A stretch of 27,759 nucleotides of DNA, taken from contig DASPJR010000027.1 in the NCBI GenBank assembly GCA_035628505.1, positions 1 to 27,759 of the forward strand, given 5' to 3'. Shown one piece after another: positions 11,832 through 24,833 of the stretch. Made by a program: the position numbers and the translations under genes. How positions within the stretch are numbered: the stretch's first letter is position 1; each line of letters opens with the position of its first letter. The notes under the pieces are model-generated. The model did not search any database, was not told the origin of the DNA, and saw only the letters and a list, made by a program, of their open reading frames with translations. This DNA comes from Planctomycetota bacterium. Lineage in GTDB: Bacteria > Planctomycetota > SZUA-567 > H5-PLA8.

Positions 11832-14632
11832 GCGACTCAACGGTGGGCAATGCCGTCAACCTTGTCCTGACCGGCTACGCCTGGTGGCTGATGATTCCCG
11901 CATCGGCCGTGCTTGGCGTGCTGATCGCTCGGCTTTACATGAAGGAGACAGAAGGCTTCGGCAACGGCGGAATGTGGCTGCGCATGCTGCGTGCGGCCGT
12001 GGTGGTGATCCTGGTGTTGCTGCTCTCGCAACCTATTATTCACCGTGTGACAGCGCTGCACGAACCGCCTGTCGTGATCGTGCTGCGCGACCAGTCGACG
12101 AGCATGAGCGTCAAAGATACGCACGAGCCGATCGAGAAGAAAGTTCGCGCCGCAGTGGTGCTTGGCCTGCTCGATGGCAAACTTCGCGATCTTAATGCCG
12201 AGAACGCCGTGACATCCCTGACGTCGGCACTCACAGCGCTCGAGTCCGCAACAGGGGGCGTGCGGCAGGCAATGCAGCAGCTGCAGGAAAGCGGCGAAAG
12301 TTCAGCGGGCATCCAGGAGCGCCTGACGCAGGCGCGAAAGTACCTTTCCACTCTTGCTGCCGAATCGCGCAAGGCCGCCGATCTTCTCGCAGCGGCGCCG
12401 CTGGTTCAGCCGCATCAGAAACCCGCCGCCCTGAAAGCCGCCGAAATGGCCGCGGCTCTGGACAAGGACCTGAGCGAGGTTCCGCTGAAAAATGCGGACG
12501 CGCGCAAGTTCCTCATGGATAAGAGCCAGTCGCTTAAAGCACTCAAGCAGGATCTCACCCGCGTCACCGCCGATGCGCGCAAGCTGCAGGATCGCGTCGA
12601 TCGGGCGCTGGGCGAAAGCGGCAAGCAGCCGGTCAAGACTGCCATTGAAGCGATCGATAAGATGGACCGCATCACCTTCACGACGGCCATTCTGGACAAG
12701 TCCACGACGGAGCTTGGCGGCGAGCAGGCCCGGATCGTCAGCTACAATATTGATACGGATCTGCGCAGCCCGGACGGAAAATTTCTCGAACGCGAACCGG
12801 ACAAGAACGAGAGCAAGGACGCGAAGCCTGAAAAGCGCACCGACGCGCGCCAGACGCGCGCAGATACGGACCTCGCAACGCCGCTGCTTCGCCTGCTTGA
12901 AAAACACGCGCACGACACGGTCACATCTATTGTCCTCTGCAGCGACGGCCGCCACACCAGCGGACCGGCGCCAGAAGACGCCGCACGCGCCATCGCGGCG
13001 CGCGGCATCACCCTGCACTCGCTGGGAGTTGGCAGCACGGAAGCGCCGCCGGATATCTGCGTCGCACGCCTGGACGGCACGCTCTCGGTGTTCCTTGAAG
13101 AAACCATTCGCCTCACCGCGCAGATCAAATGCACGGGCTTGAAGAATCAGAAGTGTAAGCTCGCGCTGAAGTCGGGCGACAAAACGATCCAGGAACGCGT
13201 GCTCGCCATCGGTTCTGACGGCTGGCTCACCGAAACATTTGAGCTCACCGCAACGAAGAGCGGGCCCAATGCGTTCACGGCATCGATTGAACCACTGCCG
13301 GGCGAGGCGCTCACGACAAACAACAGCGCCGATGCCGTTGTCGATGTCGCCAACGACCGGCTGAAAGTCCTGGTTGTCGATGAACTTCCGCGCTGGGAAA
13401 CGCGTTATGTCGCCAGCCTCCTGCGCCGCGAGCGCAAAATGGAACTGAAAGAACGCTGGCTGATCAGCGGCGACGGAATGGGCCCACGGCCAAAGGCTCT
13501 GCCGGAAGAACAGAAAGGACTGGAAGAATACGACATCATTGTGCTGGGCGACGTAATGGCAGAACGGCTCGACGATGCCGCGCAGAAGCGCCTCGCGCGC
13601 TATGTCGCGGACAACGGCGGCTTTTTGGTCGTCATCGCCGGAAATAAAGCCATGCCGCGCGCGTACCCAAGTGGTCCGCTCGCCGATCTGCTGCCGATCA
13701 AGCAGCAACTCACGACCGGCGCTGCGGCAATGCTGACAGCCGATGCCACCGCCGGCGCGCGCGTGAAACTCGACGCGGACGGCAGCCGCAGCGAGATCGT
13801 ACGCGTTCTGCGTGATCCGGCGCTGAACGAGCAGCTCTGGCCGGCGCTTCCGGAACTGACCTGGATTGCGCGGCCCGCTTTCGCAAAGCCAGGCGCGACG
13901 ACGCTCCTTTATGCCGACGACGCGCGAAAGGATGCGGTCGTCGCCGTGCACAGCTACGGCGCGGGGCGTGTGCTTTATATCGGATCGGACAACACCTGGC
14001 GCTGGCGCTATAAAGTTGGCGACCGCGTGCACGCTGTCTTCTGGTCGCAGGCAATGCGCTGGGGTACCAGCAACCGCCTGACCGGCAATCCGCGGCTGAA
14101 AGTCGGGCTCGACCGCCGCCAGATCCGCCCCGGAGAGAACCTCGAAGTAATTGCGCGGCCGCGCGACAGGGCGGGCGCAGCCGTCGCCAATGCATTGGTC
14201 ATTGCCGAGCTCGAAGACCGCACGCGCCAGCAGCACGTTCAGCTTCAGCCGGTGGCCGACAGCGGCGGGCTGTACCGCGGTGTGCTGCAGAACATCGGCG
14301 CCGGCGTGCACTCGATCAAGATCAAAGTTCAGTCCCCCGACTTCGAAGGCATCGAAGAAACCCTGCAGGTCATTTCGCGCGAAGTGACCGGCCAGGAAGG
14401 CGTGGAACTTTCACGGGATACGGCGCGGCTCGCATCCCTGGCGCAGGCCGGCTCCGGCCGCAGCCTTGATATCCTGGAAGCGCGTCAGCTCTTCAAAGAA
14501 CTCGCCGGCCAGGGAAAGATCCGCACGGTCGAGTCCTCTTACGAACTATGGTCGTCGTACTGGGCGCTGCTGCTCGTGGTGGCGCTGCTGGCTGCCGAGT
14601 GGCTCCTGCGCAAAAAGATGGGCATGGCCTGA
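11828..14632 (+). CDS. Second BatA_N-type membrane protein (BatB-like). N-terminal double TM, a long coiled/extended region, a vWA-like segment (IVLCSDGRHTSG) and a GATase1-like domain (YDIIVLGDV...GGFLVVIAGN).
   Basis: ATG at 11828 overlaps the upstream stop (ATGA). SD ggaggtgg at 11816-11823. 935 aa. Confidence 0.7.
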   Translation: MSDSTVGNAVNLVLTGYAWWLMIPASAVLGVLIARLYMKETEGFGNGGMWLRMLRAAVVVILVLLLSQPIIHRVTALHEPPVVIVLRDQSTSMSVKDTHEPIEKKVRAAVVLGLLDGKLRDLNAENAVTSLTSALTALESATGGVRQAMQQLQESGESSAGIQERLTQARKYLSTLAAESRKAADLLAAAPLVQPHQKPAALKAAEMAAALDKDLSEVPLKNADARKFLMDKSQSLKALKQDLTRVTADARKLQDRVDRALGESGKQPVKTAIEAIDKMDRITFTTAILDKSTTELGGEQARIVSYNIDTDLRSPDGKFLEREPDKNESKDAKPEKRTDARQTRADTDLATPLLRLLEKHAHDTVTSIVLCSDGRHTSGPAPEDAARAIAARGITLHSLGVGSTEAPPDICVARLDGTLSVFLEETIRLTAQIKCTGLKNQKCKLALKSGDKTIQERVLAIGSDGWLTETFELTATKSGPNAFTASIEPLPGEALTTNNSADAVVDVANDRLKVLVVDELPRWETRYVASLLRRERKMELKERWLISGDGMGPRPKALPEEQKGLEEYDIIVLGDVMAERLDDAAQKRLARYVADNGGFLVVIAGNKAMPRAYPSGPLADLLPIKQQLTTGAAAMLTADATAGARVKLDADGSRSEIVRVLRDPALNEQLWPALPELTWIARPAFAKPGATTLLYADDARKDAVVAVHSYGAGRVLYIGSDNTWRWRYKVGDRVHAVFWSQAMRWGTSNRLTGNPRLKVGLDRRQIRPGENLEVIARPRDRAGAAVANALVIAELEDRTRQQHVQLQPVADSGGLYRGVLQNIGAGVHSIKIKVQSPDFEGIEETLQVISREVTGQEGVELSRDTARLASLAQAGSGRSLDILEARQLFKELAGQGKIRTVESSYELWSSYWALLLVVALLAAEWLLRKKMGMA

Positions 14633-14708: not shown

Positions 14709-17700
14709 ATGAGCGAACCGGAAATTCTCGAAGAGGAGGCGCCGCCGGTACTGGAAGTCCCGGCTCCGGTCGCCAGCGCTCTGCAGCGCTTCGCCGACGA
14801 GACGCGCCGTCTGGCCATTCGCGAGTGCTTTGCCTGGGCAGCGGTCATCCTGATCGGGCTCTTTACGCTGCTGGCGTTTGCCGATTTCCTGCAGCTCTTC
14901 GGCGATGGCGCCCGCAAGACCCTCGCAGTTCTGTTTTACGCAATTGTTGCAGGCATCACGGGATTTCTCCTGTCGCGCGCACTGCGGCGCCGCACTCCAA
15001 CCGAAATCGCACTGGCTCTTGAGGAGCGCGTGCCGGACGGGGCACTGGAGGAACGCGTCTCAACGACCGTCGAGCTGGCTGAACGGTATGCGTCAGGAAC
15101 CGTACAGGACGACGAAGGCGTATCGGACGCCCTGATCTCACGCGTGGCCGACGAGGCCGCGGTGCTGATCGAGCGCATTAATGTCGAAGAACTCACCGAC
15201 CGCACAGGCTCCCGGCGCTCCGCGCGGGCGGCACTGGCGTCCTTCGCCGTGGCGGTACTGCTTTGTCTCATTCCCGTTCTGCATATGCCCGTGCTTTACG
15301 CCCGCGCATTTTTTCCCTGGCAGAAGCTGCAGCGGCCAAGCGAAACGCTGATCGCCGTGCTGCCGGGAGATTCGCGCATCGTTGAGGGCGCGCCGTTAAA
15401 AATTGAGGCGCGTCTGAGCGGCAAGCTCGTTAAAGAGGCCGCGGTCGAAATGCGCGATCACAACAGCTCGGCCTGGGTCTCGACAGAAATGAAGGCCGAT
15501 CCTACTTCGCCCGAGCGCTTTGAATTAACGCTGTCCTCTGTCCGCGCGCAGGCCGACTACCGCATTCGCGCCGGTGACGGATTGACAGCCGAGTACCACA
15601 TCCAGGTGCTGCCGCGCCCGGAGATCACCGGCCTGAAGATGGTGGTAACCTACCCCGTCTACGCCAACAAACCGCCGGAAACGTTCGAACGCATCAGCGG
15701 CGACCTGTCGGTGCTGAAGGGTTCGAAAGTGCAACTGAGTGTCACATCGAACACGGATCTTTCAGCCGCAGTCATCGAGTTTTCAAACGACCGCCGCGTC
15801 TCGATGTCACTGGGGCAGAAGTCGGCCTCGGCGTCCTTTGATATCACGGAAGACAGCCAATACCGAATCCAGCTTCGCTCGACGGATGGCGTGAGCAATC
15901 CCGATGCGCCGCTGTTTGCCATTCACGCCGTTCCGGACAAGGCGCCGCAGGTCGCCGTGCACAGCCCGGGCTCTGATGATGCGACAGATCCGGCTACGCT
16001 GCTGAACCTGGAAACGCGCGCGGAGGACGATTTCGGAATCACCTCCATGCGGCTGGTCGTGAAGACCGAACAGCGCGCAAAGCCCGTGACGGTTCAGCTG
16101 CAGAAACCCGAAGATGCCGGCAAGGTCTGGCTCGTTTCACAACCCTGGGACCTCGCCGGGCTTTTCTTGAAAGATGGCGAAATTGTCACGTACCGCGTCG
16201 AAGCGGTAGACACGTCGGGCTCGGTGGGCAAGAGCGATGAGCGGCGGCTGCGCATCGAAAGCGGTCAGAAACATCCCTCTGTCAAAGTGCTGTCTGAACT
16301 GGAAAGAGTGCAGAAGCACGTCGATGGCGCGCACCGGCTGCTGACAACGGCTCGGAACGACATCGCCGAAATGCGCCAACTGTTCCGCCCTGAAGACGTT
16401 GAATATCAGGCCGCTGAGCGCCTGCTGCTTGAAGAGACGCTGCGCCGCATCCGCCGGGAGACGCAGAGCGCGTCGGCGCTGCTGGAAGCCGTCACGCCTG
16501 ATGCGGAAACTGGATCGATGCGCACGCTGGTACAGGCGCTGACAAACGCGCTGGCGCGCTTCAGTTCCACTGAACTCCATCCGCTGCAGAGCAACGCCAC
16601 GCGCGCGCGCTCCAATGGCAGCGCCGCGGTCGCCGCGGGCCTTGAAGTGCTGATGGTCCAGGCGCCGAAAGTGGAAGAGCGGCTGAACATGCTGCATGAG
16701 GCGCTCACCGCCGCCCACCGGTACGCCGGAGCAACGGTGCTGAACGAGCGCGCTGAGGATATTCGCAAATCGCAGAAGAAGATTTCGCCGATACTCCTCG
16801 GCGCTGCGGCGTGGAGCCCGAAGGGCAACTTCACACCGGGTCTTGCGGCTGAATACTACAGGGGCACAAATTTCGAGCAGCTCGTGCGCCGCACGGTCGA
16901 GAACAATCTGGATCTGAAGAACCAGGATCTCCCCGACGTGGGCCGCGAGAATTTTACAGTCCGCTGGAAAGGACAGGTGCTCGCCCCGCGCGCCGGCCGC
17001 TACACCTTCCGTGCCACGGCCGATGACGGCGTGCGCCTGACCGTCGCTGGAAAGAAGCTCATCGATGAATGGCGCATGCAGGCCGCGACGCCGTTCGAAG
17101 CGGCGATCGAGCTTAAAGAAGGCTGGAGCGACATTGTTCTGGAGTTCTTGCAGGGCTCGGGCGGCTATGAGCTCAACCTCGTTCGCTCCGGGCCGAAGAT
17201 TGCAACCGCGCCTATTCCGCCCGAGCACCTCCGCACCACCGGTACGACCATTGCCGTGAATCCAGACACAGTCAAAGCCGCCATGGTTGAGAGCGCCAGC
17301 GACGCCGCCGTTCAGCAGTCGCTCGTGCGCCTGCAGACGATGCTGCAGGCTTCGCAGCAGCTTGCGCCCGAATACACGCGCCTGAGCAAGCTTCCTCCCA
17401 CAGCCGACGAGGAAGGCGTGAAGCAGAGCGCCGAGTGGGGCCGCGAACTGATCAAGAACGTCGGCGAACTCGTCGGCGTCAAGACACTGTCGCCCGGACT
17501 GGCCGTTCCACTCATGCAATGGCAGGAACACACGCGCGGAATCGATCATCGTTACCGTGAACTGCGCGCGCGCTACAAGGCGAAGGTCGACGAATGGGCA
17601 AAGAAATTCGCTGCGGATATTTTCGAAGCCACGGCAAAACTCAAAGATCTTCAGCAGAATGCCGAGAACGCGCGCAAGGCTTTCGAGACGCTCATCCAGG

Positions 17701-20700
17701 CATCCAAGCAGCCGAAAGACGAAAAGCGCGAAGCAGCGATGCAGCAGGCCGACGCGATGGTGCGTTCCATGGCCGAGGATCTGCAGACGCAGGCCAAGGA
17801 GATTGCCGCGGAATTCGCCAAGGCAGCCGAGGACGTCAACCGCCCACTCGACGAACGCCGCATCCTCAAAGCGCTCGAGCACAAAGCTGAAATGATGGCG
17901 CTTGAGCCCGCCGGCACACTGGCCAAGCGGCTTGAAGACGCAAAGACGCCGGAGGAACTGGCGAAGACGGAGCAGAAGGTTCCGAACTTCGGAACGAAGG
18001 CCGCCGAGCTGAGCCAGAAAGCCGCCGCGCTGGCACAGGCGACGGAAAAGATGGAACGCGCCGTGGCGCTGCGTGAAGCACTCGAGGAGCTTGCGGAGAC
18101 TGAGCAGGAAGCCCGCGAGGCGCTCGCCGAAGCACCCACGGCAGAGAATGCCGCCAAACAGCAGGAGGCCGCGGCGGAATTGAAGGAGCAGGCCGCGGAG
18201 CTCAAGCACGCCGTCGAGCTGGCGCGCAACAACGTTGACAACAACACGCTGAACCAGGCAGCGCAGCTCGCCGATCGGGCGCTTGCAACCAATGCTGCCG
18301 ATCTTCTGAAAAAGCGCGCGGAACAGGCGCTTGCGGGGGAGCTTGATCCGAAGAAAGATTCCGCGAACGCTCCGGCTCGAAAGGCTGCAGACAAAGATCT
18401 GGCTGAGCAGGCAAAGAAAGCGTCTGAGACCGCAGCCGCTATCAATAAAGAATTAGCGCAGCAGGCCGCGCAGCTCAATGGCGATGTTGCCAACACGCTG
18501 CGTGAAGCCGCGAAAGATCTGCAGGCCAGCTCACAGGCACTCGAAGCCGCCAAGCAGCCGGCCGAGGCTGCCGCGGCGCTTGACCGGGCCGCCGACAAGG
18601 CGATCGAAGCGCAGGCTGAAGCGGCCAATGCCGCCGAGCAGATCGCGCTGAACGCCGAGGCCATGCGCCGCGCCGCGAAGACGGACGCGGAACGCGCGCG
18701 CGCCGATGATATGGTGCGCCTGGCTGCAGCCATTCACAACGAAGTGGAAAAGCAGATCGCGCCACTGGCCGAGCAGCTTGATCGCGCGGAGAAGAACCCC
18801 GATGCCGTCCCCGTGCCGGCTGACGCGCAGGAGCAGGGAAAGAACGAAGCCGCAAAGCTGAACAAGCTCGCCGACATCGCCGCGCAGTTGCAGTCGCCAG
18901 ACGCCAACCAGCAGAAGGCAGCGCACGACGCGATCAATAAGGTGCTCGCCGAGCAAGGCGCGGCCAAGGACGTCGAAGAAGCGCTCAAGCAGGCGCAAGC
19001 GCTCGAGACGGCGGCGGAGCATCTCGAGAAAGCCGAAGCTGCCGCGGCAGCAGGCGCGGAGGCCAAGACCGGTGAAAAGGGCGCTGACAAAGCCGGCGAA
19101 AAAGCCGGAGAGAAGGGCGGCGAGAAAGGCGCAGACGCCGCCGCGAAGCAGGAAGCGGAATTGAAAGCCGCCGAGGCGGCGCTCGCTGAAGCGGTGAAAG
19201 CCGATGCTGCCGAGGCAGGGAAAGAGGCGCTCGCCGAAAGGCTGGGCGAGATGGCCGGTGAGCTGCGCCAGCAAGCCGAGGAACAGCGGCAACTGGCAAA
19301 TCACCTCAACCAGGCGGCTGGGCTCGAGCAGCAGGCGCGCGAGAACCTGAAGAAGGAGGCCCCTGCCCTCGCCCAGTCACTGCGCGACGCACAGAAGAAT
19401 GCGGCCAACGCGGCCAAGGGAAAAGCTCCTGACATCGCGCAGCCGCTCAATAATGCGCAGCAGGGATTGGCGAAGTCCGCCGAAGCATTGCAGGCTGAAG
19501 CTGCAAAGGCAGACGGAACTCCGCTGGAGCAGCTTGCGGCAGATCTTGAAAAAATTGCCAAGGACATCGAGGCGCCCATCGGCGAGCTTGCCGCGGCGCT
19601 GAATAAGGGCGCTGAAGGAACGCAGGATATCCAGCGCGCCGGACGCGAAGCGCGAAATGCCGCCGGACGCGCAAAGGAACTTGCCGCTGAGATGCAACGC
19701 GCCGAACGCGCAGCGGATCTGGCCGCAGCCGAGGCGCAGGAAGCCCAGGGCGAGCGGGCCGATCTGGAAGCGCAGGTCAAGGCAGCGATTGCTGCGCTTG
19801 AAAATCAGGGCGGCGCGCCCGAAGCGGAATTGGCGGCGCTGAAAAAGGCTGCTGCATCCGGCGAGCCGAAGAGCGCTCAGGGAAATCCCGAGGGAGGAGA
19901 AAAACAGGCGCAAAGCGGAGCGCAGAAAGGCGAAGCGTCCGCCCAGAATCCGAAAAGCGGACAGAATCTACAAAGCGGGCAGAATCCACAAAGCGGGCAG
20001 AACCCGCAAAGCGCCCAGAACGCGCAGAATCCAGGGCAAAATGCCCAGCACGGTCAAACTCCGCAGAGTGCTCAGAATCCCCAGAGCGGCCAAAATCCGC
20101 AGAGCGGCCAGAATGCCCAAAGCGGGCAGAAGAGTGCTCAAAGCGGACAGAGCGGACAGAAGCCCTCCTCTGCTGCGGCTGGCGAGCCTACGCAGGAATC
20201 CATGCAACTCGAAGCCGAGCGCGCGCGCGCCGACAGCGAACGCCTGCAGCAGATGGCCGCGCAGATGGAAAAAATCGCTGCATCGCTGAGCCCGGCCGGC
20301 GCGCAATCGTCGCAGAAGCCTGCATCGGACAAGGCCAGTACCACACCTGCGGCCGATGCGCTTGAAGCAGTCGAAGACGCCAAGGCAGCGCTGGCGACCG
20401 GCGATAAAGCCGGCGCGGCCGAAGCGATCAATGAAGCGCAGGAATTTCTTGAGCAGGCTGCCGAGGCCGCTCGCGCGGAAGCGACTGGAATGAAAACGCC
20501 GGGCAAGTCGGAAGCCGAAGCGCTCGCCGACGGCGAACCGAGCCCCAAGAGCAAAGGCACGGGACAAGGCAAGAGCCAGGCGCAGGGACAGGGCCAGGGC
20601 AAGACGCCCGCGCAGAAAGCCGCTGCCCAGCAGTCCAAAGGCGCGCTCGCTCCCGAACCGCCGGCTGGAATTCCGATCGACAAGGCCACGTGGAACCGCC

Positions 20701-20822
20701 TGCCCGACAATCTGCGGCGCGATCTGCTGAACGCGGCCGGCGGGCGCTTTCCGGCGGAATACGAAAGCAGCATCAAGCGTTACTTCAAAAACGTGGCCTC
20801 GACCAAGGATGAGAAACGCTGA
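14709..20822 (+). CDS. Giant 2037-aa protein. Two N-terminal TM helices, beta-rich Ig-like regions, a PA14 domain (about nt 16821-17213) and then about 1000 residues of Ala/Glu/Lys/Gln-rich coiled coil with low-complexity repeats.
   Basis: PA14 signature YYRGTNF...FTVRWKGQVLAPRAGRYTFRATADDGVRLTVAGKKLIDEW. N-terminal hydrophobic helices at residues about 40-90. C-terminal half is continuous heptad-like AEAAKLNK/AELKA sequence. Confidence 0.75.
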   Translation: MSEPEILEEEAPPVLEVPAPVASALQRFADETRRLAIRECFAWAAVILIGLFTLLAFADFLQLFGDGARKTLAVLFYAIVAGITGFLLSRALRRRTPTEIALALEERVPDGALEERVSTTVELAERYASGTVQDDEGVSDALISRVADEAAVLIERINVEELTDRTGSRRSARAALASFAVAVLLCLIPVLHMPVLYARAFFPWQKLQRPSETLIAVLPGDSRIVEGAPLKIEARLSGKLVKEAAVEMRDHNSSAWVSTEMKADPTSPERFELTLSSVRAQADYRIRAGDGLTAEYHIQVLPRPEITGLKMVVTYPVYANKPPETFERISGDLSVLKGSKVQLSVTSNTDLSAAVIEFSNDRRVSMSLGQKSASASFDITEDSQYRIQLRSTDGVSNPDAPLFAIHAVPDKAPQVAVHSPGSDDATDPATLLNLETRAEDDFGITSMRLVVKTEQRAKPVTVQLQKPEDAGKVWLVSQPWDLAGLFLKDGEIVTYRVEAVDTSGSVGKSDERRLRIESGQKHPSVKVLSELERVQKHVDGAHRLLTTARNDIAEMRQLFRPEDVEYQAAERLLLEETLRRIRRETQSASALLEAVTPDAETGSMRTLVQALTNALARFSSTELHPLQSNATRARSNGSAAVAAGLEVLMVQAPKVEERLNMLHEALTAAHRYAGATVLNERAEDIRKSQKKISPILLGAAAWSPKGNFTPGLAAEYYRGTNFEQLVRRTVENNLDLKNQDLPDVGRENFTVRWKGQVLAPRAGRYTFRATADDGVRLTVAGKKLIDEWRMQAATPFEAAIELKEGWSDIVLEFLQGSGGYELNLVRSGPKIATAPIPPEHLRTTGTTIAVNPDTVKAAMVESASDAAVQQSLVRLQTMLQASQQLAPEYTRLSKLPPTADEEGVKQSAEWGRELIKNVGELVGVKTLSPGLAVPLMQWQEHTRGIDHRYRELRARYKAKVDEWAKKFAADIFEATAKLKDLQQNAENARKAFETLIQASKQPKDEKREAAMQQADAMVRSMAEDLQTQAKEIAAEFAKAAEDVNRPLDERRILKALEHKAEMMALEPAGTLAKRLEDAKTPEELAKTEQKVPNFGTKAAELSQKAAALAQATEKMERAVALREALEELAETEQEAREALAEAPTAENAAKQQEAAAELKEQAAELKHAVELARNNVDNNTLNQAAQLADRALATNAADLLKKRAEQALAGELDPKKDSANAPARKAADKDLAEQAKKASETAAAINKELAQQAAQLNGDVANTLREAAKDLQASSQALEAAKQPAEAAAALDRAADKAIEAQAEAANAAEQIALNAEAMRRAAKTDAERARADDMVRLAAAIHNEVEKQIAPLAEQLDRAEKNPDAVPVPADAQEQGKNEAAKLNKLADIAAQLQSPDANQQKAAHDAINKVLAEQGAAKDVEEALKQAQALETAAEHLEKAEAAAAAGAEAKTGEKGADKAGEKAGEKGGEKGADAAAKQEAELKAAEAALAEAVKADAAEAGKEALAERLGEMAGELRQQAEEQRQLANHLNQAAGLEQQARENLKKEAPALAQSLRDAQKNAANAAKGKAPDIAQPLNNAQQGLAKSAEALQAEAAKADGTPLEQLAADLEKIAKDIEAPIGELAAALNKGAEGTQDIQRAGREARNAAGRAKELAAEMQRAERAADLAAAEAQEAQGERADLEAQVKAAIAALENQGGAPEAELAALKKAAASGEPKSAQGNPEGGEKQAQSGAQKGEASAQNPKSGQNLQSGQNPQSGQNPQSAQNAQNPGQNAQHGQTPQSAQNPQSGQNPQSGQNAQSGQKSAQSGQSGQKPSSAAAGEPTQESMQLEAERARADSERLQQMAAQMEKIAASLSPAGAQSSQKPASDKASTTPAADALEAVEDAKAALATGDKAGAAEAINEAQEFLEQAAEAARAEATGMKTPGKSEAEALADGEPSPKSKGTGQGKSQAQGQGQGKTPAQKAAAQQSKGALAPEPPAGIPIDKATWNRLPDNLRRDLLNAAGGRFPAEYESSIKRYFKNVASTKDEKR
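19941..20165. repeat. In-frame degenerate 21-nt tandem repeat inside the giant gene, encoding about 12 copies of the heptapeptide QSGQNPQ.
   Basis: Example unit cagagcgggcagaatccacaaagcgggcagaacccgcaaagcgcccagaac. Protein reads ...QNPKSGQNLQSGQNPQSGQNPQSAQNAQNPGQNAQHGQTPQSAQNPQSGQNPQSGQNAQSGQ... Confidence 0.85.
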
Positions 20823-21898
20823 TGAAAACGCATTGGCTCAGCTTTGTCATCACAGCGAGTTTTCTCGGCTGCGCAGCGCTAGGGGGTGACAAGCCCGTCG
20901 CCCGCGCGGCAACGGCGGCCGAAGACGAGGCAGCCATTCTGCGCAAGTTGCAGGACCGCGGCCCGCGCGACGCGGCGATCGAGAAGGCCGTCAACTTCCT
21001 GATTTCCACACAGAACAAGGACGGCAGCTTTGGCGAGAAACACAAGAATGCGCTCACGGGGCTGACCGTGATGGCGCTGATGGCGGCCGGCCATACGCCT
21101 GACTCTCCGCAGAATGGGCCCAAGATCCGCAACGCGCTCAACTTTATTCTTTCCCAGATGCGCAATGACGGGTACCTGGGGCACAGCGACCATTCGCGCA
21201 TGTACGGCCATGGAATCTGCACGCTGATGCTCACCGAAGCGGCGGGCATGACACGCGATGATGCACTTGAAAAACGGCTGATCGATGCCTGCCGCCGCGC
21301 CGTGGAGCTGATCCTGAAAGCACAGGCCGTGAAAAAGCAGGGGCATCACAATGGCGGCTGGCGCTACGAACCCAATAGCGGCGATAGTGATCTGTCGCTC
21401 ACCGGCTGGCAGACCATGTCGCTGCGCTCAGCTAAAAATATCGGCATCGATGTTCCGGGCACCGCGATTACGGCTGCAACCAACTACATCCGCGCGATGG
21501 CGCGCGATGGCGAGTTCTCTTACGAAGGCGGCGGCGGCCAGCCGACGTTGCGCGGAATCGGCCTGCTGGCGTTGCCTGTCTGCGGAGTATACGACGCGCC
21601 GGAGCTGGCAAAGGCGACGGCGAATATGCTGAAAGACCCGCCGAAGTGGCAGGGCCCCTGGTTCTATTACCGCCTTTATTACTCCACGATGGGCATGTAC
21701 CAGATGGGCGACGAGGCCTGGAACCGTTTCCATCCCATCGTCGACGACGTTTTGCTCAAGCAGCAGAAACCCGACGGAAGCTGGCCTGATCCTCCAGGGA
21801 ATAACGAGCAGGAGGCCGGCGGCGCGATCTATTCGACCAGCATGGCGATCCTTGTGCTCGCGGTGCACTATCATTTGCTTCCAATTTATCAGCGTTGA
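20822..21898 (+). CDS. Secreted or lipid-anchored prenyltransferase / squalene-oxidase-repeat (terpenoid-cyclase-like alpha/alpha-toroid) protein.
   Basis: Signal peptide MKTHWLSFVITASFLGCAALGG. Repeats GGWRY..., DGSFGEKHKNALTGLTVMALMAAG and KPDGSWPDPPG are typical of the PTase/SQCY repeat fold. Start overlaps the giant gene stop (TGATG). Confidence 0.75.
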   Translation: MKTHWLSFVITASFLGCAALGGDKPVARAATAAEDEAAILRKLQDRGPRDAAIEKAVNFLISTQNKDGSFGEKHKNALTGLTVMALMAAGHTPDSPQNGPKIRNALNFILSQMRNDGYLGHSDHSRMYGHGICTLMLTEAAGMTRDDALEKRLIDACRRAVELILKAQAVKKQGHHNGGWRYEPNSGDSDLSLTGWQTMSLRSAKNIGIDVPGTAITAATNYIRAMARDGEFSYEGGGGQPTLRGIGLLALPVCGVYDAPELAKATANMLKDPPKWQGPWFYYRLYYSTMGMYQMGDEAWNRFHPIVDDVLLKQQKPDGSWPDPPGNNEQEAGGAIYSTSMAILVLAVHYHLLPIYQR

Positions 21899-22089: not shown

Positions 22090-22339
22090 ACACAGTTAGT
22101 TAGGAGAGTAGCAATTCGATGAACTGGGTCATGGCACAAATAAGCGGACATACACAGTACCTGTCCTATGCGGATCAGCGGACGGGTATCGTCGTATCGT
22201 TTAGTTTGCCGTGCCTCGGTCGTAAAGCTGAAAACAATCTGAACGCCCCCGAGACCGGGAGGCCCGCACCCTAGAAGGTTGAGTTCATGTGGAGATTCCA
22301 CAAACCTTCCAGGGTGCAAGCTCTGGAAGGTTTTTTTTT
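22090..22339 (+). ncRNA. Candidate small RNA of about 250 nt with unassigned family. Relatively AT-rich and ends at an intrinsic terminator.
   Basis: No ORF of at least 60 aa on the plus strand here (track minimum). Bounded by a promoter-like site and by terminator ccttccag-ggtgcaagct-ctggaagg followed by T8 (22304-22339). GC content is visibly lower than the flanking DNA. Confidence 0.4.
22304..22339 (+). terminator. Rho-independent terminator. 8-bp GC-rich stem CCTTCCAG/CTGGAAGG, a 10-nt loop, then TTTTTTTT.
   Basis: Perfect inverted repeat 22305-22312 / 22323-22330, followed by a T8 run at 22331-22338. Confidence 0.75.
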
Positions 22340-22500: not shown

Positions 22501-22574
22501 GCGGATGTAGCTCAGTGGCAGAGTACGAGCATGCCAAGCTCGAGACGCGGGTCCGATTCCCGCCTTCCGCACCA
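22501..22574 (+). tRNA. tRNA-Gly(GCC). CCA is encoded. T-loop TCCGATT is non-canonical (C55).
   Basis: Cloverleaf: acceptor GCGGATG/CTTCCGC, D-arm GCTC-AGTGGCA-GAGT, anticodon arm CGAGC-aTGCCAa-GCTCG. Confidence 0.7.
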
Positions 22575-22634
22575 AGCTCAGCTTCACTCACCGGGGAGAC
22601 GCGGAGGCGCTGAGAACAGATTGGAAAAGTTCGG

Positions 22635-22705
22635 GCCGCGGTGTGAGGGTCACGCGCCTCTCCCGTAAAGAGGCTGAGCAGGTTCAACTCCTGCCTGCGG
22701 CTCCA
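22635..22705 (+). pseudogene. Degenerate tRNA-like element related to Cys, with a truncated D-arm. Has acceptor GCCGCGG/CTGCGGC, discriminator U, CCA and T-arm GCAGG-TTCAACT-CCTGC.
   Basis: Anticodon-like hairpin CCTCT-CCCGTAA-AGAGG has C33. The D region is only 15 nt. Its 3' end, CTGCGGC-T-CCA, mirrors that of the Cys tRNA at 25014. Confidence 0.35.
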
Positions 22706-22712
22706 AACAGAT

Positions 22713-22740
22713 GTGACGGGTGACGGGTGGCGGGTAACGA
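22713..22740. repeat. Tandem heptamer repeat, GTGACGG family x4.
   Basis: gtgacgg gtgacgg gtggcgg gtaacga. The same family recurs at 26109-26142. Confidence 0.7.
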
Positions 22741-22777
22741 CACCCAGACTCAAGACTCCCGACTCATGACTATTGTT

Positions 22778-22848
22778 TGCGGTGTCGCGTAATGGTAGCG
22801 CGCCTGCCTGTTAAGCAGGAAGTAGAGGTTCGAATCCTCTCTCCGCAG
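22778..22848 (+). tRNA. tRNA-Asn(GTT).
   Basis: U1-A72 acceptor TGCGGTG/CTCCGCA, discriminator G73. Anticodon arm CCTGC-cTGTTAa-GCAGG. T-arm AGAGG-TTCGAAT-CCTCT. Confidence 0.65.
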
Positions 22849-22856
22849 TGTGAAGT

Positions 22857-22931
22857 GGGGCGATGGTGAAATCAGGATCATACGACGTTCGCATCGTCGC
22901 GTCCCGGGTGCAACTCCCGGTCGCTCCACCA
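22857..22931 (+). tRNA. tRNA-Ala(CGC)-like. Has G3:U70, A73 and CCA, but a non-canonical T-loop TGCAACT (G55) and an unusual D-arm. Possibly non-functional.
   Basis: Acceptor GGGGCGA/TCGCTCC. Anticodon arm CGACG-tTCGCAt-CGTCG. T-arm CCGGG-TGCAACT-CCCGG. Total 75 nt. Confidence 0.45.
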
Positions 22932-22940
22932 GAGAAAAAC

Positions 22941-23013
22941 GCCTTCGAGGTGTTAGCGGCAGCACAGCGGGTTCTTACCCCGTGAGGTGGAGGTTCAAGT
23001 CCTCCCGGAGGCA
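22941..23013 (+). tRNA. tRNA-Lys(CTT).
   Basis: Acceptor GCCTTCG/CGGAGGC, discriminator A73. D-arm GTGT-TAGCGGCA-GCAC. Anticodon arm GCGGG-tTCTTAc-CCCGT. T-arm GGAGG-TTCAAGT-CCTCC. Confidence 0.7.
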
Positions 23014-23021
23014 TGGAAGGC

Positions 23022-23093
23022 AGCTCTTAGCTCTTGGCTGTTGGCTCTTGGAGTTGCGTTGCAATGTCTGTTCCAAGAGCCAAGAGCTAAGAG
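23022..23093. repeat. Hairpin built from GGCTCTT-family heptamers.
   Basis: 5' arm gctcttagctcttggctgttggctcttgga, an 18-nt loop, 3' arm tccaagagccaagagctaagagc. Confidence 0.7.
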
Positions 23094-23111
23094 CCTAGAG
23101 CCGCAACAGCC

Positions 23112-23184
23112 GCGTTCGTAGCTCGAGCGGCAGAGCAGCCGCCTTTTAAGCGGCAGGGTGTGGGTTCGAGCCCCACCGGACGCA
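23112..23184 (+). tRNA. tRNA-Lys(TTT).
   Basis: Acceptor GCGTTCG/CGGACGC, discriminator A73. D-arm GCTC-GAGCGGCA-GAGC. Anticodon arm GCCGC-cTTTTAa-GCGGC. T-arm GTGGG-TTCGAGC-CCCAC. Confidence 0.8.
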
Positions 23185-23190
23185 TGAAGA

Positions 23191-23261
23191 TGCCGGGTCG
23201 TCCAGCGGCAGGACGCCTGACTCTGAATCAGGAAAGCGAGGTTCGAATCCTTGCCCGGCAA
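23191..23261 (+). tRNA. tRNA-Gln(CTG).
   Basis: U1-A72 acceptor TGCCGGG/CCCGGCA, as in bacterial Gln. D-arm GTCC-AGCGGCA-GGAC. Anticodon arm CCTGA-cTCTGAa-TCAGG. T-arm CGAGG-TTCGAAT-CCTTG. Confidence 0.75.
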
Positions 23262-23282
23262 TGGAAGGGCCAGTAGGCGGAA

Positions 23283-23372
23283 GGCAGTGGGCAGGAGGCA
23301 GTGGGCAGGGAACAAAAGAAGACTGAGTGGACGGTGCAGAACGCTGAGCCTCACTCCTGGCTCAGTTTTCCG
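23283..23372. repeat. GGCAGTG/GGCAGGA heptamer tandem at 23283-23310, followed by a terminator-like hairpin GCTGAGCC-tcactcct-GGCTCAGT plus TTTT at 23344-23372.
   Basis: ggcagtgggcaggaggcagtgggcaggg, then gctgagcctcactcctggctcagtttt. Confidence 0.5.
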
Positions 23373-23398
23373 TACTGCTCATTCAGAGGGAACGCAGG

Positions 23399-23469
23399 TG
23401 GCCTGTCGTCCAATGGGAGGACGGCGGACTTTGAATCCGCCTATCGAGGTTCGAATCCTCGCGGGCCAG
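23399..23469 (+). tRNA. tRNA-Gln(TTG).
   Basis: U1-A72 acceptor TGGCCTG/CGGGCCA, discriminator G73. D-arm GTCC-AATGGGA-GGAC. Anticodon arm GCGGA-cTTTGAa-TCCGC. T-arm CGAGG-TTCGAAT-CCTCG. Confidence 0.8.
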
Positions 23470-23517
23470 TAACGCGCGTTGCGAACTCGCGGGGGCAGTG
23501 CTGACGGAGAGCGACAG

Positions 23518-24072
23518 ATGAAAACGCCATTTTTAATTGGAGATCGCATCTGCCTGCGGCCGCTGGAGCGCGAGGACGCGCGCGTGCTGGAGTTTTACAT
23601 CAACGATCCGGATGTCACACGCACGCTGCAGGCATACCGCCCGATGAATCTGCAGATCGAGGAAGACTGGATCGCGGATCTCTACAAGAAGGAAAGCGAC
23701 ATCGTGCTCGGTATCGCGATCAAGAGCAGCGACAAGCTGATCGGTGCGACCGGTCTGCATCGACTGGAATTCAAAGACAGGCGCGCGGAGTTCGGAATCA
23801 GCATCGGCGCGAAGGAAGAGTGGGACAAAGGTTACGGCACCGAGGCCACGCGGCTAATCGTCGGCTACGGCTTCGAGACGCTGAACCTCAACAGGATCAG
23901 CTTGCGCGTGTACGAGCACAATCCTCGAGCGCAGCGCGCGTACGAGAAGGCAGGCTTCAAAAAGGAAGGCGTGCTGCGCAAGGAAGTCTACAGGCTCGGC
24001 CGCTATTGGGACACGATCGTGATGGGCATATTGCGCGAGGAATGGGACGCCCTCGCGGCAAGCAAGAAGTGA
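23518..24072 (+). CDS. GNAT N-acetyltransferase of the RimJ/RimL-like (Acetyltransf_3) family, embedded in the tRNA array.
   Basis: 184 aa. WDKGYGTEATRLIVGYGFETLNLNRISLRVYEHNPRAQRAYEKAGFKKEGVLRKE matches the RimJ/L core. SD ggaga sits 8 nt before ATG 23518. Confidence 0.8.
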   Translation: MKTPFLIGDRICLRPLEREDARVLEFYINDPDVTRTLQAYRPMNLQIEEDWIADLYKKESDIVLGIAIKSSDKLIGATGLHRLEFKDRRAEFGISIGAKEEWDKGYGTEATRLIVGYGFETLNLNRISLRVYEHNPRAQRAYEKAGFKKEGVLRKEVYRLGRYWDTIVMGILREEWDALAASKK

Positions 24073-24076
24073 GGAC

Positions 24077-24107
24077 GTGGGGCAGCGCGAACGAACGCCT
24101 GCCCCAC
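24077..24107 (+). terminator. GC-rich stem-loop immediately after the GNAT stop codon. No U-tract follows, so it may be a terminator or a processing hairpin.
   Basis: gtggggcag-cgcgaacgaacgc-ctgccccac. Confidence 0.35.
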
Positions 24108-24119
24108 GCAGGGCGCGAG

Positions 24120-24190
24120 CGGGCGTTAGTGCCGGTGGCACTGGCGAGTCTTATAAACCCGCTGGCCGGGTTCAACTCCCGGGCGCCCGA
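24120..24190 (+). pseudogene. Degenerate tRNA-like element. Acceptor CGGGCGT/GCGCCCG, T-arm CCGGG-TTCAACT-CCCGG, a tight GTGC-CGGTG-GCAC D hairpin and an anticodon-like loop CTTATAA with a mismatched stem.
   Basis: Manual fold; the D-arm and anticodon stem are irregular. Its T-arm is closely related to that of the Ala-like tRNA at 22857. Confidence 0.3.
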
Positions 24191-24202
24191 CTGAACTGAT
24201 GA

Positions 24203-24274
24203 GCCGGGATGGCGTAGGGGTCTGCGCGTCCGCCTGAAGAGCGGAAGGTGATCGTTCGACTCGATCTTCCGGCA
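24203..24274 (+). tRNA. tRNA-Phe(GAA).
   Basis: Acceptor GCCGGGA/TTCCGGC, discriminator A73. Anticodon arm TCCGC-cTGAAGa-GCGGA. T-arm GATCG-TTCGACT-CGATC. Confidence 0.75.
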
Positions 24275-24284
24275 TGTGAACGAC

Positions 24285-24365
24285 GGTTTCTGGTTTGAAG
24301 TTTCTGGTCTCTGGCTAATTGCAGCTTGCACTGAACCAGAAACTAGAAACCAGAAACCTGAAACC
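24285..24365. repeat. Hairpin built from CCAGAAA/GGTTTCT heptamers.
   Basis: 5' arm ggtttctggtttgaagtttctggtctctgg. 3' arm ccagaaactagaaaccagaaacctgaaacc. Confidence 0.75.
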
Positions 24366-24373
24366 GAATTTAA

Positions 24374-24446
24374 CGGGGCGTAGCGTAGCGGCTAACGCGC
24401 CTGCGTCGGAAGCAGGAGAACGTCGGTTCGAATCCGGCCGCTCCGA
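24374..24446 (+). tRNA. tRNA-Pro(CGG).
   Basis: C1-G72 acceptor CGGGGCG/CGCTCCG, discriminator A73, as expected for Pro. D-arm GCGT-AGCGGCTA-ACGC. Anticodon arm CCTGC-gTCGGAa-GCAGG. T-arm GTCGG-TTCGAAT-CCGGC. Confidence 0.75.
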
Positions 24447-24460
24447 TGGGAGAACGACGG

Positions 24461-24547
24461 CTTCTGGTTTGAGGTTTCTAGTTTCTAGTTAACTGCTGAT
24501 CGCGCGAAACCAGAAACAGGAAACCAGAAACCAGAAACAGAGGTTTG
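24461..24547. repeat. Hairpin built from CCAGAAA/GGTTTCT heptamers.
   Basis: 5' arm cttctggtttgaggtttctagtttctagtt. 3' arm gaaaccagaaacaggaaaccagaaaccagaaacag. Confidence 0.75.
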
Positions 24548-24622: not shown

Positions 24623-24670
24623 TTATGCAAAAACGTCAGCAGCAACCGACAGCGGCTGAGGTGAACTGGA

Positions 24671-24832: not shown

Positions 24833-24833
24833 T

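Follow-up and report, generated by a model that had tools for sequence, protein, structure and literature searches.

Operons of the Bat (Bacteroides aerotolerance) type, compared here from B. fragilis, Borrelia (BB0170-BB0176), Leptospira, Francisella, Riemerella and R. leguminosarum (RL3499-RL3502), encode MoxR (AAA_3), DUF58 and then membrane vWA proteins with a BatA-N double-TM region, and envelope or stress phenotypes are reported for them in some species. Deletion of moxR or batA changes stress tolerance in Riemerella (PMC11834572), and the title of Vanderlinde et al. 2011 (cited in PMC5118466) ties the RL3499-RL3502 operon to cell morphology and envelope integrity. Such a role is not general, because Leptospira biflexa showed no phenotype when its Bat genes were completely deleted (PMC3557215). 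The planctomycetal operon in our window, the whole 27,759-nt stretch analysed, has the same MoxR, DUF58 and BatA-type vWA arrangement. Unlike the Bat-type operons, it carries a giant DUF4175 protein and an alpha/alpha-toroid protein after its two membrane vWA proteins; a DUF4175 component is unmentioned in the Bat operon descriptions of PMC5700661, PMC3557215 and PMC11834572. No BatD (oxygen-tolerance) or TPR BatC/BatE family was matched when the operon proteins were scanned.

The operon, which is conserved and consists of tightly coupled genes, runs in the order ECF sigma factor, anti-sigma factor, MoxR, DUF58, BatA-vWA, vWA/DUF7408, DUF4175 and exported alpha/alpha-toroid (Table 1). The genes of the two membrane vWA proteins, each with a pair of TM spans at the N-terminus and a single one at the C-terminus in a TM scan, overlap by 10 nt. 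The toroid gene is predicted to be translationally coupled to the giant gene, because the stop of the latter and the start of the former overlap in TGATG; its product begins with MKTHWLSFVITASFLGC and is probably a lipoprotein. Three Planctomycetota MAG loci (L003, L004, and L005) span the operon completely, and in all three the eight genes keep the same order. The shorter or rearranged loci L002, L006, L007, and L008 hold consistent parts, and the closest relative (L084) runs from DUF58 through the toroid gene. Across the orthologous loci, MoxR is 82-88% and DUF58 66-81% identical, and the toroid gene (63-72%) adjoins the giant gene in every case. Of two distant loci, L001, whose giant protein is 29% identical and PA14-less, keeps the MoxR-to-toroid core, with no sigma-factor gene called within 3.2 kb upstream of its MoxR, and in L032 the genes from MoxR to the giant gene are present before the contig ends. 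The MoxR/vWA context suggested in a preliminary description is thereby borne out: Pfam places MoxR, DUF58, and BatA-vWA genes upstream of the giant gene, which remains co-linear with this set in all of the orthologous loci examined as well as in L001 and L032. However, the DUF4175 genes of Myxococcus and a Latescibacteria MAG do not adjoin MoxR, so this link is lineage-specific and not a rule of the DUF4175 family. The giant protein is best explained as the largest subunit encoded by a Bat-like MoxR-vWA envelope operon that is conserved in Planctomycetota.

Table 1. Features of the operon and of the giant DUF4175 gene (nucleotide positions in the window; residue numbers refer to the protein concerned)
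Feature	Position	Strand	Basis or remark
ECF sigma factor	5841-6497	+	Pfam Sigma70_r2/r4; heads operon
Putative anti-sigma factor, single-pass	6538-7545	+	weak NCBIfam anti-sigma match; TM at residues 118-136
MoxR AAA+ ATPase	7606-8643	+	Pfam AAA_3 2.6e-62
DUF58 vWA-like protein	8689-9582	+	Pfam DUF58 2.5e-47
Membrane vWA protein, BatA-N + VWA_2 + CARDB	9609-11831	+	Pfam, TIGR02226
Membrane vWA-like + DUF7408 protein	11822-14632	+	Pfam
Whole giant gene: DUF4175-family protein with PA14 insert	14709-20822	+	ORF, Pfam, orthologues
TM1 (residues 40-58), short outside loop, TM2 (residues 71-89): N-terminal helical hairpin	14826-14975	+	hydropathy, AF2
Arg-rich helical loop TM2-TM3 (residues 90-174), inferred cytoplasmic	14976-15230	+	charge, AF2 helices
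TM3 (residues 175-193)	15231-15287	+	hydropathy 2.36
Three tandem Ig-like beta-sandwich domains (residues 213-516), conserved DUF4175 core	15345-16256	+	AF2, Foldseek
Four long helices (residues 523-702), predicted up-down four-helix bundle	16275-16814	+	
PA14 domain (about residues 705-850)	16821-17258	+	Pfam, 6qe7
Ala/Glu/Lys/Gln-rich, mostly helical, segmented tail (residues 866-1717)	17304-19859	+	composition, AF2
Disordered Gln/Gly/Ser/Asn/Pro-rich stretch (residues 1718-1828)	19860-20192	+	TRF, AF2 coil
Short helical segment (residues 1829-1925)	20193-20483	+	AF2
Second disordered linker, Gly/Gln/Pro/Lys-rich (residues 1926-1991)	20484-20681	+	AF2 coil, pLDDT about 30
Conserved C-terminal motif (residues 1992-2037): WNRLPDNLRRDLLNAAGGRFPAEYESSIKRYFKNVAS	20682-20819	+	orthologue alignment, phmmer
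Exported alpha/alpha-toroid (squalene-cyclase/prenyltransferase-repeat-like) protein	20822-21898	+	Pfam SQHop_cyclase_C 1.1e-07
Terminator-like hairpin, 14-bp stem + T-run, downstream of operon	22302-22333	+	consensus match only

The giant gene is a single ORF of 2037 aa and, judged by comparison, is a real, conserved gene rather than a chance ORF, because full-length orthologues with 44-78% identity (78% in the closest) occupy the same operon. With a Pfam DUF4175 (PF13779) score of 51.6 bits against a cut-off of 27.3, the protein is an ordinary member of this uncharacterised membrane-protein family, which neighbours MoxR/vWA genes in many Planctomycetota. In the Pfam/NCBIfam scan it matched no S-layer or flagellar family, nor any other well-characterised one. 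A search with the protein matched 20,845 representatives at E<=1e-3, many via PA14 alone. The architecture, initially described as atypical, recurs in 27 of the 44 other family members, which combine three TM spans, an Ig-like region, a helical bundle, PA14 in the same position, and an Ala/Glu/Gln-rich tail of 500-1640 aa, with a C-terminal FPAEYxxSIRRYF motif in most; one is from the cultured Kolteria novifilia (Pan216 WP_145255443.1, 1891 aa), and NCBI already names the orthologues "DUF4175 family protein" or "PA14 domain-containing protein". The wider family, such as Myxococcus stipitatus P0012, shares with the giant protein the N-terminal TM region, the Ig-like core, in which the invariant Pro, Asp, and Gly residues occupy matching positions, and a low-complexity long helical tail with an EYxxxIxxYF-type C-terminal motif. 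In contrast, short members such as those of Myxococcus, at about 1050-1150 aa, have no PA14, their tails of about 480-600 residues contain less Ala, and their MoxR linkage is not obligatory.

Three spans of the protein pass the hydropathy threshold, one more than first reported, and form the N-terminal membrane anchor (Kyte-Doolittle 19-aa window values of 2.44 for TM1 and 2.07 for TM2). AF2 builds the TM1/TM2 hairpin from helices at residues 19-62 and 66-92 with a pLDDT of about 90. The loop between TM2 and TM3 contains 13 K+R, with RALRRR right after TM2 and RTGSRRSARA right before TM3. Three hydrophobic spans are present in 33 of 45 family members, and the positive-inside counts across 33 relatives are 4.2 / 1.9 / 6.6 per 30 / 1.7. 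By hydropathy and the positive-inside rule, the N-terminus and this loop would be cytoplasmic, on the same side as MoxR and DUF58, and all of the protein beyond TM3 would be periplasmic, like the exported toroid protein and the large domains of both BatA-type vWA proteins. The signal-peptide/lipobox-like N-terminus of the downstream protein supports the outside placement, and experiments on the Borrelia BatA homologue BB0173 place its vWA domain in the periplasm (PMC5700661). We infer that the giant protein is probably an inner-membrane-anchored, periplasm-facing scaffold or tether subunit of a Bat-like MoxR-vWA envelope complex, bearing a lineage-specific glycan-binding insert.

The PA14 domain lies where the preliminary description had put it, and the Ig-like region that it named is confirmed. 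The three Ig-like domains are modelled by AF2 with a pLDDT mostly >90, their Foldseek matches are tandem Ig/MG/FN3 arrays, and P304, P316, G338, D410, P413, D440, D441, and D501 are invariant in 45 relatives. The best fold-level matches of the helical bundle that follows are de novo designed bundles, so the match is generic; the bundle also resembles the periplasmic sensor domains of histidine kinases and chemoreceptors (ranks 48, 51, and 55), and its likeness to the helical-bundle chains of the talin rod and vinculin tail is at the fold level only (6-14% identity). The PA14 domain is, on sequence grounds, genuine and of the sugar-binding type: Pfam PF07691 matches residues 710-794 with 58.8 bits (cut-off 24, E=6.8e-16), and residues 711-827 align over 117 residues to the closest solved PA14 sequence, the PA14 dyad of Clostridium thermocellum RsgI3 (6qe7, E=8.4e-24). 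AF2 models the domain poorly, as it was present in just 3 of the 16 rows of the alignment. A Golvesin_C domain is recorded in two orthologues, P0022 and P0169, and is nested within PA14 in P0022. PA14 is best read as a lineage-specific insert with predicted glycan binding.

RsgI3, a membrane-anchored anti-sigma-I factor, uses its extracytoplasmic PA14 to sense polysaccharides, and the giant protein, with a PA14 predicted to lie outside, has a sigma/anti-sigma pair encoded nearby. Such a likeness could mean that the giant protein is a periplasmic glycan or envelope sensor, in which ligand binding at PA14 would signal to the co-encoded anti-sigma factor, either directly or via the complex, and would thereby control the ECF sigma factor. 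The retention of the pair at the operon head in L002-L005 and the resemblance of the bundle to sensor domains are in keeping with this. We nevertheless consider a sensor unlikely: RsgI3 is itself the anti-sigma factor and has two C-terminal PA14 copies, whereas the giant protein has a single mid-protein PA14 and the anti-sigma factor is encoded separately, with an external domain of its own (~200 aa). In addition, the PA14-less L001 has the MoxR-to-toroid core with no sigma-factor gene called in the 3.2 kb upstream, the bundle matches are generic, and a tail of 1,170 residues would have no obvious role.

The tail had been described as about 1000 residues of uninterrupted, SMC- or tropomyosin-like coiled coil. 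Its Ala/Glu/Lys/Gln-rich composition is confirmed, with 20-35% Ala per 100 aa between residues 1000 and 1700, but its continuity is not: residues 860-2037 contain 49 prolines, and the longest Pro-free and Pro/Gly-free runs are 154 and 67 aa. In the heptad test, the tail reaches a best-register a/d hydrophobic occupancy of 0.37, a mean z of 1.15, and z>=2 in 24% of 42-aa windows, against 0.56-0.75, 3.1-6.3, and 67-100% in tropomyosin and Lpp control sequences. The periodicity peak of 3.6 residues, instead of 3.5, is that of a plain amphipathic helix. AF2 predicts 27 helices of 4-95 residues separated by loops, about 20 of them with breaks in residues 866-1717, and coil at residues ~1718-1828 and ~1926-1991; since this model is single-sequence with a low mean pLDDT of 51, helix boundaries and packing are uncertain. 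Residues 866-1717 align to orthologues at 35-50% identity with few gaps except at 1451-1500, and no internal repeats were found there by self-BLASTP of the protein. The first disordered stretch, with 1-3% hydrophobic residues, a pLDDT of about 30, and 32-65% gaps in the orthologue alignment, includes an (SGQNPQ)n repeat at residues 1746-1808 (nt 19944-20131; TRF period 18, 10.3 copies), and the second linker has a 24-nt TRF repeat at 20546-20602. The helical segment between them (model residues 970-1066) is the part of the tail that AF2 predicts most confidently, with pLDDT values of 82-89 in places. Identity over 9 orthologues is higher in the last 37 residues, at 76%, than anywhere else in the protein; in phmmer, the C-terminal motif ends about 22 of 44 relatives, including P0012, and several further relatives end in an EYxxxIxxYF-type sequence. 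The tail is best read, from these models, as a chain of helical segments and flexible linkers rather than a rigid coiled-coil fibre, and dimeric or trimeric coiled coil may form over some segments, as 21-24% of the windows reach z>=2.

A related proposal, that the C-terminal half is an extended coiled-coil rod of >100 nm, a ruler or fibre assembled by the MoxR/vWA machinery that spans the enlarged planctomycetal periplasm or protrudes from the cell, seems to us quite improbable. The tail is indeed long, mostly helical, and amphipathic, with some heptad-like bias; residues 900 to 1700 align with few gaps, tail length is 960-1180 residues in all close orthologues but one, and the conserved C-terminal motif could serve as a distal docking site. 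Against this stand the prolines, the weak heptad signal, the two disordered stretches (about 110 aa and 65 aa), and the adjoining helical region predicted to fold back as a four-helix bundle. Tail length also varies: PA14-bearing relatives whose records are complete have tails of about 510 to 1640 residues, and even the shortest tail, if extended, would be longer than a normal periplasm is wide. The lengths are compatible with a spacer role but do not establish one.

A cell-surface fibrillar adhesin that offers PA14 to external carbohydrate is very unlikely. PA14 is common as an adhesive domain, and Ig-like stalk domains are present, but the protein has a three-span membrane anchor in place of a cleavable signal peptide, PA14 lies close to this anchor rather than at a distal tip, the stalk lacks tandem repeat domains, no secretion or surface-anchor domain was matched in the Pfam/NCBIfam scan, and the operon partners are inner-membrane and periplasmic proteins. 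A membrane-tethered cytoplasmic SMC- or tropomyosin-like coiled coil of the opposite topology, for which only the Ala/Glu/Lys/Gln composition and the length speak, is barely credible, given the failed heptad test, the typically extracytoplasmic Ig-like and PA14 domains, the positive-inside rule that puts the bulk of the protein outside, and a Pfam/NCBIfam scan that matched no SMC head or hinge, tropomyosin, or other coiled-coil family.

The scaffold or tether reading has a possible analogue in TolA, which possesses an inner-membrane anchor, an Ala/Lys/Glu-rich helical domain II, and a small C-terminal docking domain. The overall plan would be TolA-like, with an anchor, a long Ala/charged periplasmic helical spacer, and a small conserved C-terminal piece. 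The giant protein differs in having about five times the length of TolA, three TM spans, disordered linkers, and domains of the Ig-like and PA14 types; it gave no sequence or family match to TolA in the Pfam/NCBIfam scan and is not genetically linked to TolQR or Pal. As a membrane-anchored periplasmic scaffold or tether, the protein would place its Ig-like and bundle base at the inner membrane alongside the vWA proteins, and its PA14 module would bind a glycan, either of the envelope or imported. Through the long flexible tail, with its helical bundles and linkers, the conserved C-terminal motif would reach a partner; candidates are the vWA proteins, the wall, and the toroid lipoprotein. The cytoplasmic MoxR/DUF58 pair may assemble or remodel the complex, and the ECF sigma/anti-sigma pair may couple its expression to envelope stress.

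The sole mention of DUF4175 in our literature search is a passing label on Acinetobacter baumannii AdvA, a membrane protein with two predicted TM helices (PMC7481262). Unlike the giant protein, AdvA is a much smaller cell-division protein whose DUF4175 region precedes or overlaps the TM helices, and its likeness to the Ig-like core of the giant protein may be no more than a low-complexity match. Finally, the long antisense ORFs across the giant gene, attributed from the outset to composition, include one of 690 aa and arise because TTA, CTA, and TCA, which read as stops in the in-register antisense frame, make up just 13 of 2038 sense codons; the 690-aa ORF starts exactly at the last such codon ahead of a 772-codon gap.

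The giant gene, correctly placed in the preliminary description, is a single uninterrupted ORF, and its product of 2037 residues (hereafter the giant protein) is a member of a known but uncharacterised family. Two Pfam families exceeded their curated thresholds, PA14 and DUF4175 (PF13779; 51.6 bits against a cut-off of 27.3, E = 5.6e-14), the latter aligning residues 311-590 with positions 188-461 of the 825-position profile. The giant protein also displays the architecture of DUF4175 proteins, comprising N-terminal TM spans, an Ig-like core, a helical low-complexity tail, and a C-terminal EY..I..YF motif. NCBIfam returned no family at E ≤ 0.01 for the 2037 residues, including TIGR02302, which we take to be the alphaproteobacterial low-complexity DUF4175 equivalog. 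An exhaustive HMMER search with residues 1-900 against 1.84 billion cluster representatives matched 20,845 proteins at E ≤ 1e-3, many via PA14 alone, and 8,115 representatives at E ≤ 1e-10, some via PA14 alone; the full-length relatives in this search have 1744-2226 residues and 44-66% identity, and a profile search added a relative of 1939 residues (P0164) that is 78% identical.

We surveyed 44 other DUF4175-like representatives (45 sequences with the giant protein) and found PA14 at the equivalent position, approximately residues 670-890, in 27 of the 44; the tails examined are rich in Ala, Glu, Gln, and Arg. Nine residues (Ala101, Pro304, Pro316, Gly338, Asp410, Pro413, Asp440, Asp441, and Asp501) are invariant in the alignment with the 44 relatives. 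The orthologues all come from Planctomycetota MAGs and carry the NCBI names "DUF4175 family protein" or "PA14 domain-containing protein", and one PA14-bearing relative with the same architecture belongs to a cultured strain, Kolteria novifilia Pan216 (WP_145255443.1, 1891 aa). This architecture is found repeatedly in Planctomycetota and already bears a label in public annotation; the giant protein is not a categorically new feature and reveals no new kind of system. Literature searches on DUF4175, and on MoxR with Planctomycetes or PA14, returned no study of this protein type and no experimental work on this architecture.

The hydropathy scan revealed three candidate membrane spans at residues 40-58, 71-89, and 175-193 instead of the two TM helices proposed previously, and three N-terminal spans are common to 33 of the 45 family sequences, the giant protein included. 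AlphaFold2 (AF2) with a 16-sequence alignment modelled residues 1-700 reasonably well. The TM and helical N-terminus has a pLDDT of ~90, followed by three β-sandwich domains (residues 213-516, pLDDT mostly >90), which bear out the predicted Ig-like region, and by four long helices (residues 523-702, pLDDT 55-84). The N-terminus and the helical 90-174 loop are probably cytoplasmic and everything after residue 193 probably periplasmic, because positive charges cluster ahead of TM1 and at either end of the 90-174 loop (RALRRR, RTGSRRSARA), while few occur in the TM1-TM2 loop or after TM3; the same pattern is seen in the giant protein and in the average of 33 relatives. Such a placement agrees with the typically extracytoplasmic location of Ig-like and PA14 domains, with the export of the coupled α/α-toroid protein encoded downstream, and with the vWA domain of the BatA homologue BB0173, which is periplasmic by experiment (PMC5700661).

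The giant gene lies in an eight-gene operon, all on the same strand and separated by at most 76 nt or overlapping.

Features of the operon and of the region downstream of it
Feature	Position	Strand	Remarks
ECF sigma factor	5841-6497	+	heads the MoxR operon
putative anti-sigma factor, single-pass, 335 aa	6538-7545	+	external domain of ~200 aa without a Pfam match
MoxR AAA_3	7606-8643	+	Pfam AAA_3, E = 2.6e-62
DUF58	8689-9582	+	Pfam, E = 2.5e-47
BatA-N/TIGR02226 + VWA_2 + CARDB protein	9609-11831	+	BatA 2.3e-13, TIGR02226 1.6e-17, VWA_2 5e-12
vWA-like/DUF7408 protein, 936 aa	11822-14632	+	DUF7408 above threshold
giant gene	14709-20822	+	DUF4175 + PA14
exported α/α-toroid protein	20822-21898	+	squalene-cyclase/prenyltransferase-type repeats, lipobox-like N-terminus
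terminator-like hairpin	22302-22333	+	14-bp stem and seven T's
tRNA array	22501-25781	+	~16-18 genes in 3.3 kb, no long ORFs
SPFH/Band 7 gene	26138-27454	+	Pfam, E = 3.8e-36
antisense ORF, 548 aa	26102-27748	-	no family match

The MoxR/vWA setting assigned to the giant gene is supported by the closely spaced AAA_3, DUF58, BatA, and VWA_2 genes, and the presence in one operon of MoxR AAA_3, DUF58, and vWA protein(s) with the BatA N-terminal double-TM domain makes it Bat-like. The BatD (oxygen tolerance) and TPR BatC/BatE families of Bat-like operons, however, had no Pfam matches in any of the operon proteins, and PADLOC, consulted for known anti-phage MoxR-vWA systems, assigned no defence family to any of six operon proteins. 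The 936-aa vWA-like protein, whose gene overlaps the preceding BatA-type gene by 10 nt, matched VWA and Glyco_hydro_42M weakly and shares with the preceding protein an arrangement of two TM spans at the N-terminus and one at the C-terminus. The toroid gene has its start inside the stop codon of the giant gene (TGATG). The toroid protein is a candidate partner of the giant protein, because its conservation (63-72%) is higher than that of the giant protein and its gene always adjoins the giant gene. An α2-macroglobulin-like pairing, raised by a weak TED_complement match of the toroid protein (E = 8e-4, 25 residues) and MG-like Foldseek matches of the Ig domains, was rejected as a generic α/α-toroid repeat match.

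Scanning one genome for each GTDB species returned 80 loci, most of which matched through PA14 alone in unrelated proteins (from Xanthomonas, Chloroflexota, and other groups) and were left out, and yielded seven orthologous loci in unclassified Planctomycetota MAGs with 45-58% identity. By tblastn, the three loci that cover the operon whole keep the full eight-gene order, and the other four hold the parts allowed by their contigs and gene content. Across these loci, the identity falls from 82-88% in MoxR to 37-59% in the C-terminal half of the giant protein. The closest relative (locus L084) keeps the DUF58-to-toroid stretch covered by its contig; of two distant, PA14-less loci, each ~29% identical, L001 keeps the MoxR-to-toroid core and L032 keeps the genes from MoxR to the giant gene, at which point the contig stops. 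The linkage of DUF4175 to MoxR is strong in Planctomycetota but not universal, since the DUF4175 gene does not adjoin MoxR in Myxococcus and in a Latescibacteria MAG. The ECF sigma/anti-sigma pair is kept at the operon head in four of the orthologous loci (L002-L005).

From the predicted topology and the exported or periplasmic neighbours, we infer that the giant protein would serve as the scaffold or tether within a complex of the inner membrane and periplasm, partnered by the two BatA-type vWA proteins and the toroid lipoprotein. In the cytoplasm, MoxR and DUF58 would service this complex, whose expression would be under an envelope-responsive ECF sigma factor; PA14 may bind a glycan, and the tail may work as a flexible string of helical segments and linkers, holding out the C-terminal motif to a partner. 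The phenotypes of related MoxR-vWA operons are mixed: a title cited in PMC5118466 names envelope and morphology defects for RL3499-RL3502 of R. leguminosarum, stress tolerance changes in Riemerella upon deletion of moxR or batA (PMC11834572), and removal of all Bat genes left Leptospira biflexa without a phenotype (PMC3557215).

The PA14 domain (PF07691) was identified by Pfam at residues 710-794 (58.8 bits against a cut-off of 24, E = 6.8e-16), and a 181-residue fragment around it matches the solved PA14 domain of Clostridium thermocellum RsgI3 (6qe7, E = 8.4e-24) and a second solved PA14 domain (6qdi, E = 2.4e-17). The Pfam match and the similarity to solved domains therefore confirm both the PA14 assignment and the position originally proposed for it. 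In the AF2 model of residues 1-900, with its shallow alignment, the fold was not recovered and the PA14 part has a pLDDT <50, because the domain is present in just 3 of the 16 sequences in the alignment. Golvesin_C (PF25275) is on record in two orthologues (P0022 and P0169); in P0022, it occupies residues 788-920, nested inside PA14 (residues 696-786 and 925-998), which marks the PA14 position as a candidate ligand-binding site at which further domains can accrue. A PA14-based sensor feeding the ECF sigma/anti-sigma pair is plausible in view of the similarity to RsgI3 and of the regulators being conserved, but such a role leaves the tail unexplained and is weakened by L001, which retains the core operon and shows no sigma-factor gene call within 3.2 kb upstream of its MoxR.

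The tail begins at approximately residue 866 and is rich in Ala, Glu, Lys, and Gln, with Ala reaching 20-35% per 100 residues, in accordance with the composition described earlier. The claim of about 1000 residues of uninterrupted coiled coil, by contrast, is wrong. Residues 860-2037 contain 49 prolines, and the longest runs free of Pro and of Pro/Gly are 154 and 67 residues. We compared the best-register a/d occupancy with shuffled controls in 42-residue windows: the tail reaches 0.37 (mean z 1.15, z ≥ 2 in 24% of windows), against 0.56 (z 3.1) for tropomyosin and 0.75 (z 6.3) for Lpp, both control sequences being entered by hand. The hydrophobic periodicity of the tail peaks at 3.6 residues, as in a plain amphipathic helix, instead of the sharp 3.5 of tropomyosin, and the continuous heptads over hundreds of residues that characterize tropomyosin or SMC arms are lacking. 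The single-sequence AF2 model of residues 860-2037, of low confidence (mean pLDDT 51), shows 27 helices of 4-95 residues with loops between them and leaves residues ~1718-1828 and ~1926-1991 as coil; the first of these stretches holds a hexapeptide repeat, (SGQNPQ)n, which is encoded by a tandem repeat of 18 nt (nt 19944-20131). The heptad test, the prolines, and the AF2 model thus count against an extended coiled-coil ruler or fibre, a disfavoured reading that may still hold for parts of the tail.

A surface fibrillar adhesin lacks its defining features here, for the protein has three N-terminal TM spans, a PA14 domain close to the anchor instead of distal, no Pfam or NCBIfam match to a surface-anchor or secretion domain, and, by self-BLASTP, no larger internal repeats in the tail beyond (SGQNPQ)n. 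A cytoplasmic SMC-like protein fails likewise, as neither SMC_N, SMC_hinge, nor another ATPase family was found in the giant protein by Pfam at E ≤ 1 or by NCBIfam, and the heptads are missing. A spectrin-like organisation of the tail was not shown, because self-BLASTP gave no internal repeats, and the only Pfam match of the isolated tail, a sub-threshold one to Apolipoprotein A1/A4/E (17.6 bits against a cut-off of 90), probably reflects amphipathic-helix composition, not homology.

Residues 900-1700 of the tail are 35-50% identical to nine orthologues with few gaps, and the alignment is gappy at 1451-1500 and 1701-1850. Among PA14-bearing relatives whose records are complete, the tail measures between ~510 and 1640 residues; in the close orthologues, it measures 960-1180 with a single exception. 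Conservation within the giant protein is highest over its last 37 residues (76% among the nine orthologues); its C-terminal motif reads RFPAEYESSIKRYFKNVAS. By phmmer, the motif occurs in about half of the 44 relatives, including the PA14-less Myxococcus stipitatus protein (P0012; DUF4175 per NCBI/UniRef), which was also matched through its Ig core. A homology search with the 55-aa C-terminal motif found one partial planctomycetal fragment (P0163), the word index being sparse for so short a query, and Pfam on the isolated C-terminal 84 residues gave no match for the motif, nor was the DUF4175 model matched by that piece alone.

The scaffold or tether reading can be extended, as a long shot, to a length-tuned periplasmic tether, in which the helical tail, together with the conserved C-terminal motif, would bridge the enlarged periplasm of planctomycetes between the inner membrane and the wall or outer membrane. 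The polysaccharide held by PA14 would be imported or part of the envelope, and the cytoplasmic MoxR/DUF58 ATPase would extend or withdraw the tether via the three-TM anchor. If true, this would be an energy-dependent envelope-spacing or glycan-handling device without a characterised counterpart. Bat-like MoxR-vWA operons are widespread, and PMC5700661, PMC3557215, and PMC11834572 offer no agreed molecular function for them; in this Planctomycetota lineage, the largest operon product belongs to the DUF4175 family. The analysis provides a usable domain map, running from three TM spans through three Ig-like domains, a four-helix bundle, and PA14 to a segmented helical tail and, at the C-terminus, a conserved motif. 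It also names a cultured organism with the same architecture, K. novifilia Pan216. The giant protein is a reasonable target for work on Bat-like MoxR-vWA systems or the planctomycetal envelope.

The terminator-like hairpin is strong and lies ~400 nt past the last operon gene, just before the tRNA array. ARAGORN and Rfam counted 16 and 15 tRNA genes in the array in partly different sets, with modest Rfam scores of 44-71 bits. Lys, Gln, Pro, Ile, and Phe are each present twice, the anticodons Ile-TAT and Phe-AAA are odd, and the GC content is 0.545-0.567 against ~0.62. The array looks like a lineage-specific insertion, since neither five orthologous loci nor the closest relative have it downstream of the operon; a phage-database search with it gave only generic single-tRNA matches.

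The long antisense ORFs that had been ascribed to composition are real and arise from codon usage, which leaves few TTA, CTA, or TCA codons, the in-register antisense stops (13 of the 2038 codons of the giant gene). A 690-aa antisense ORF has its start precisely at codon 477, after which no further codon of this kind occurs until codon 1249. The SPFH/Band 7 gene is likewise shadowed by a longer ORF of 548 aa, another GC-rich antisense ORF in the window.
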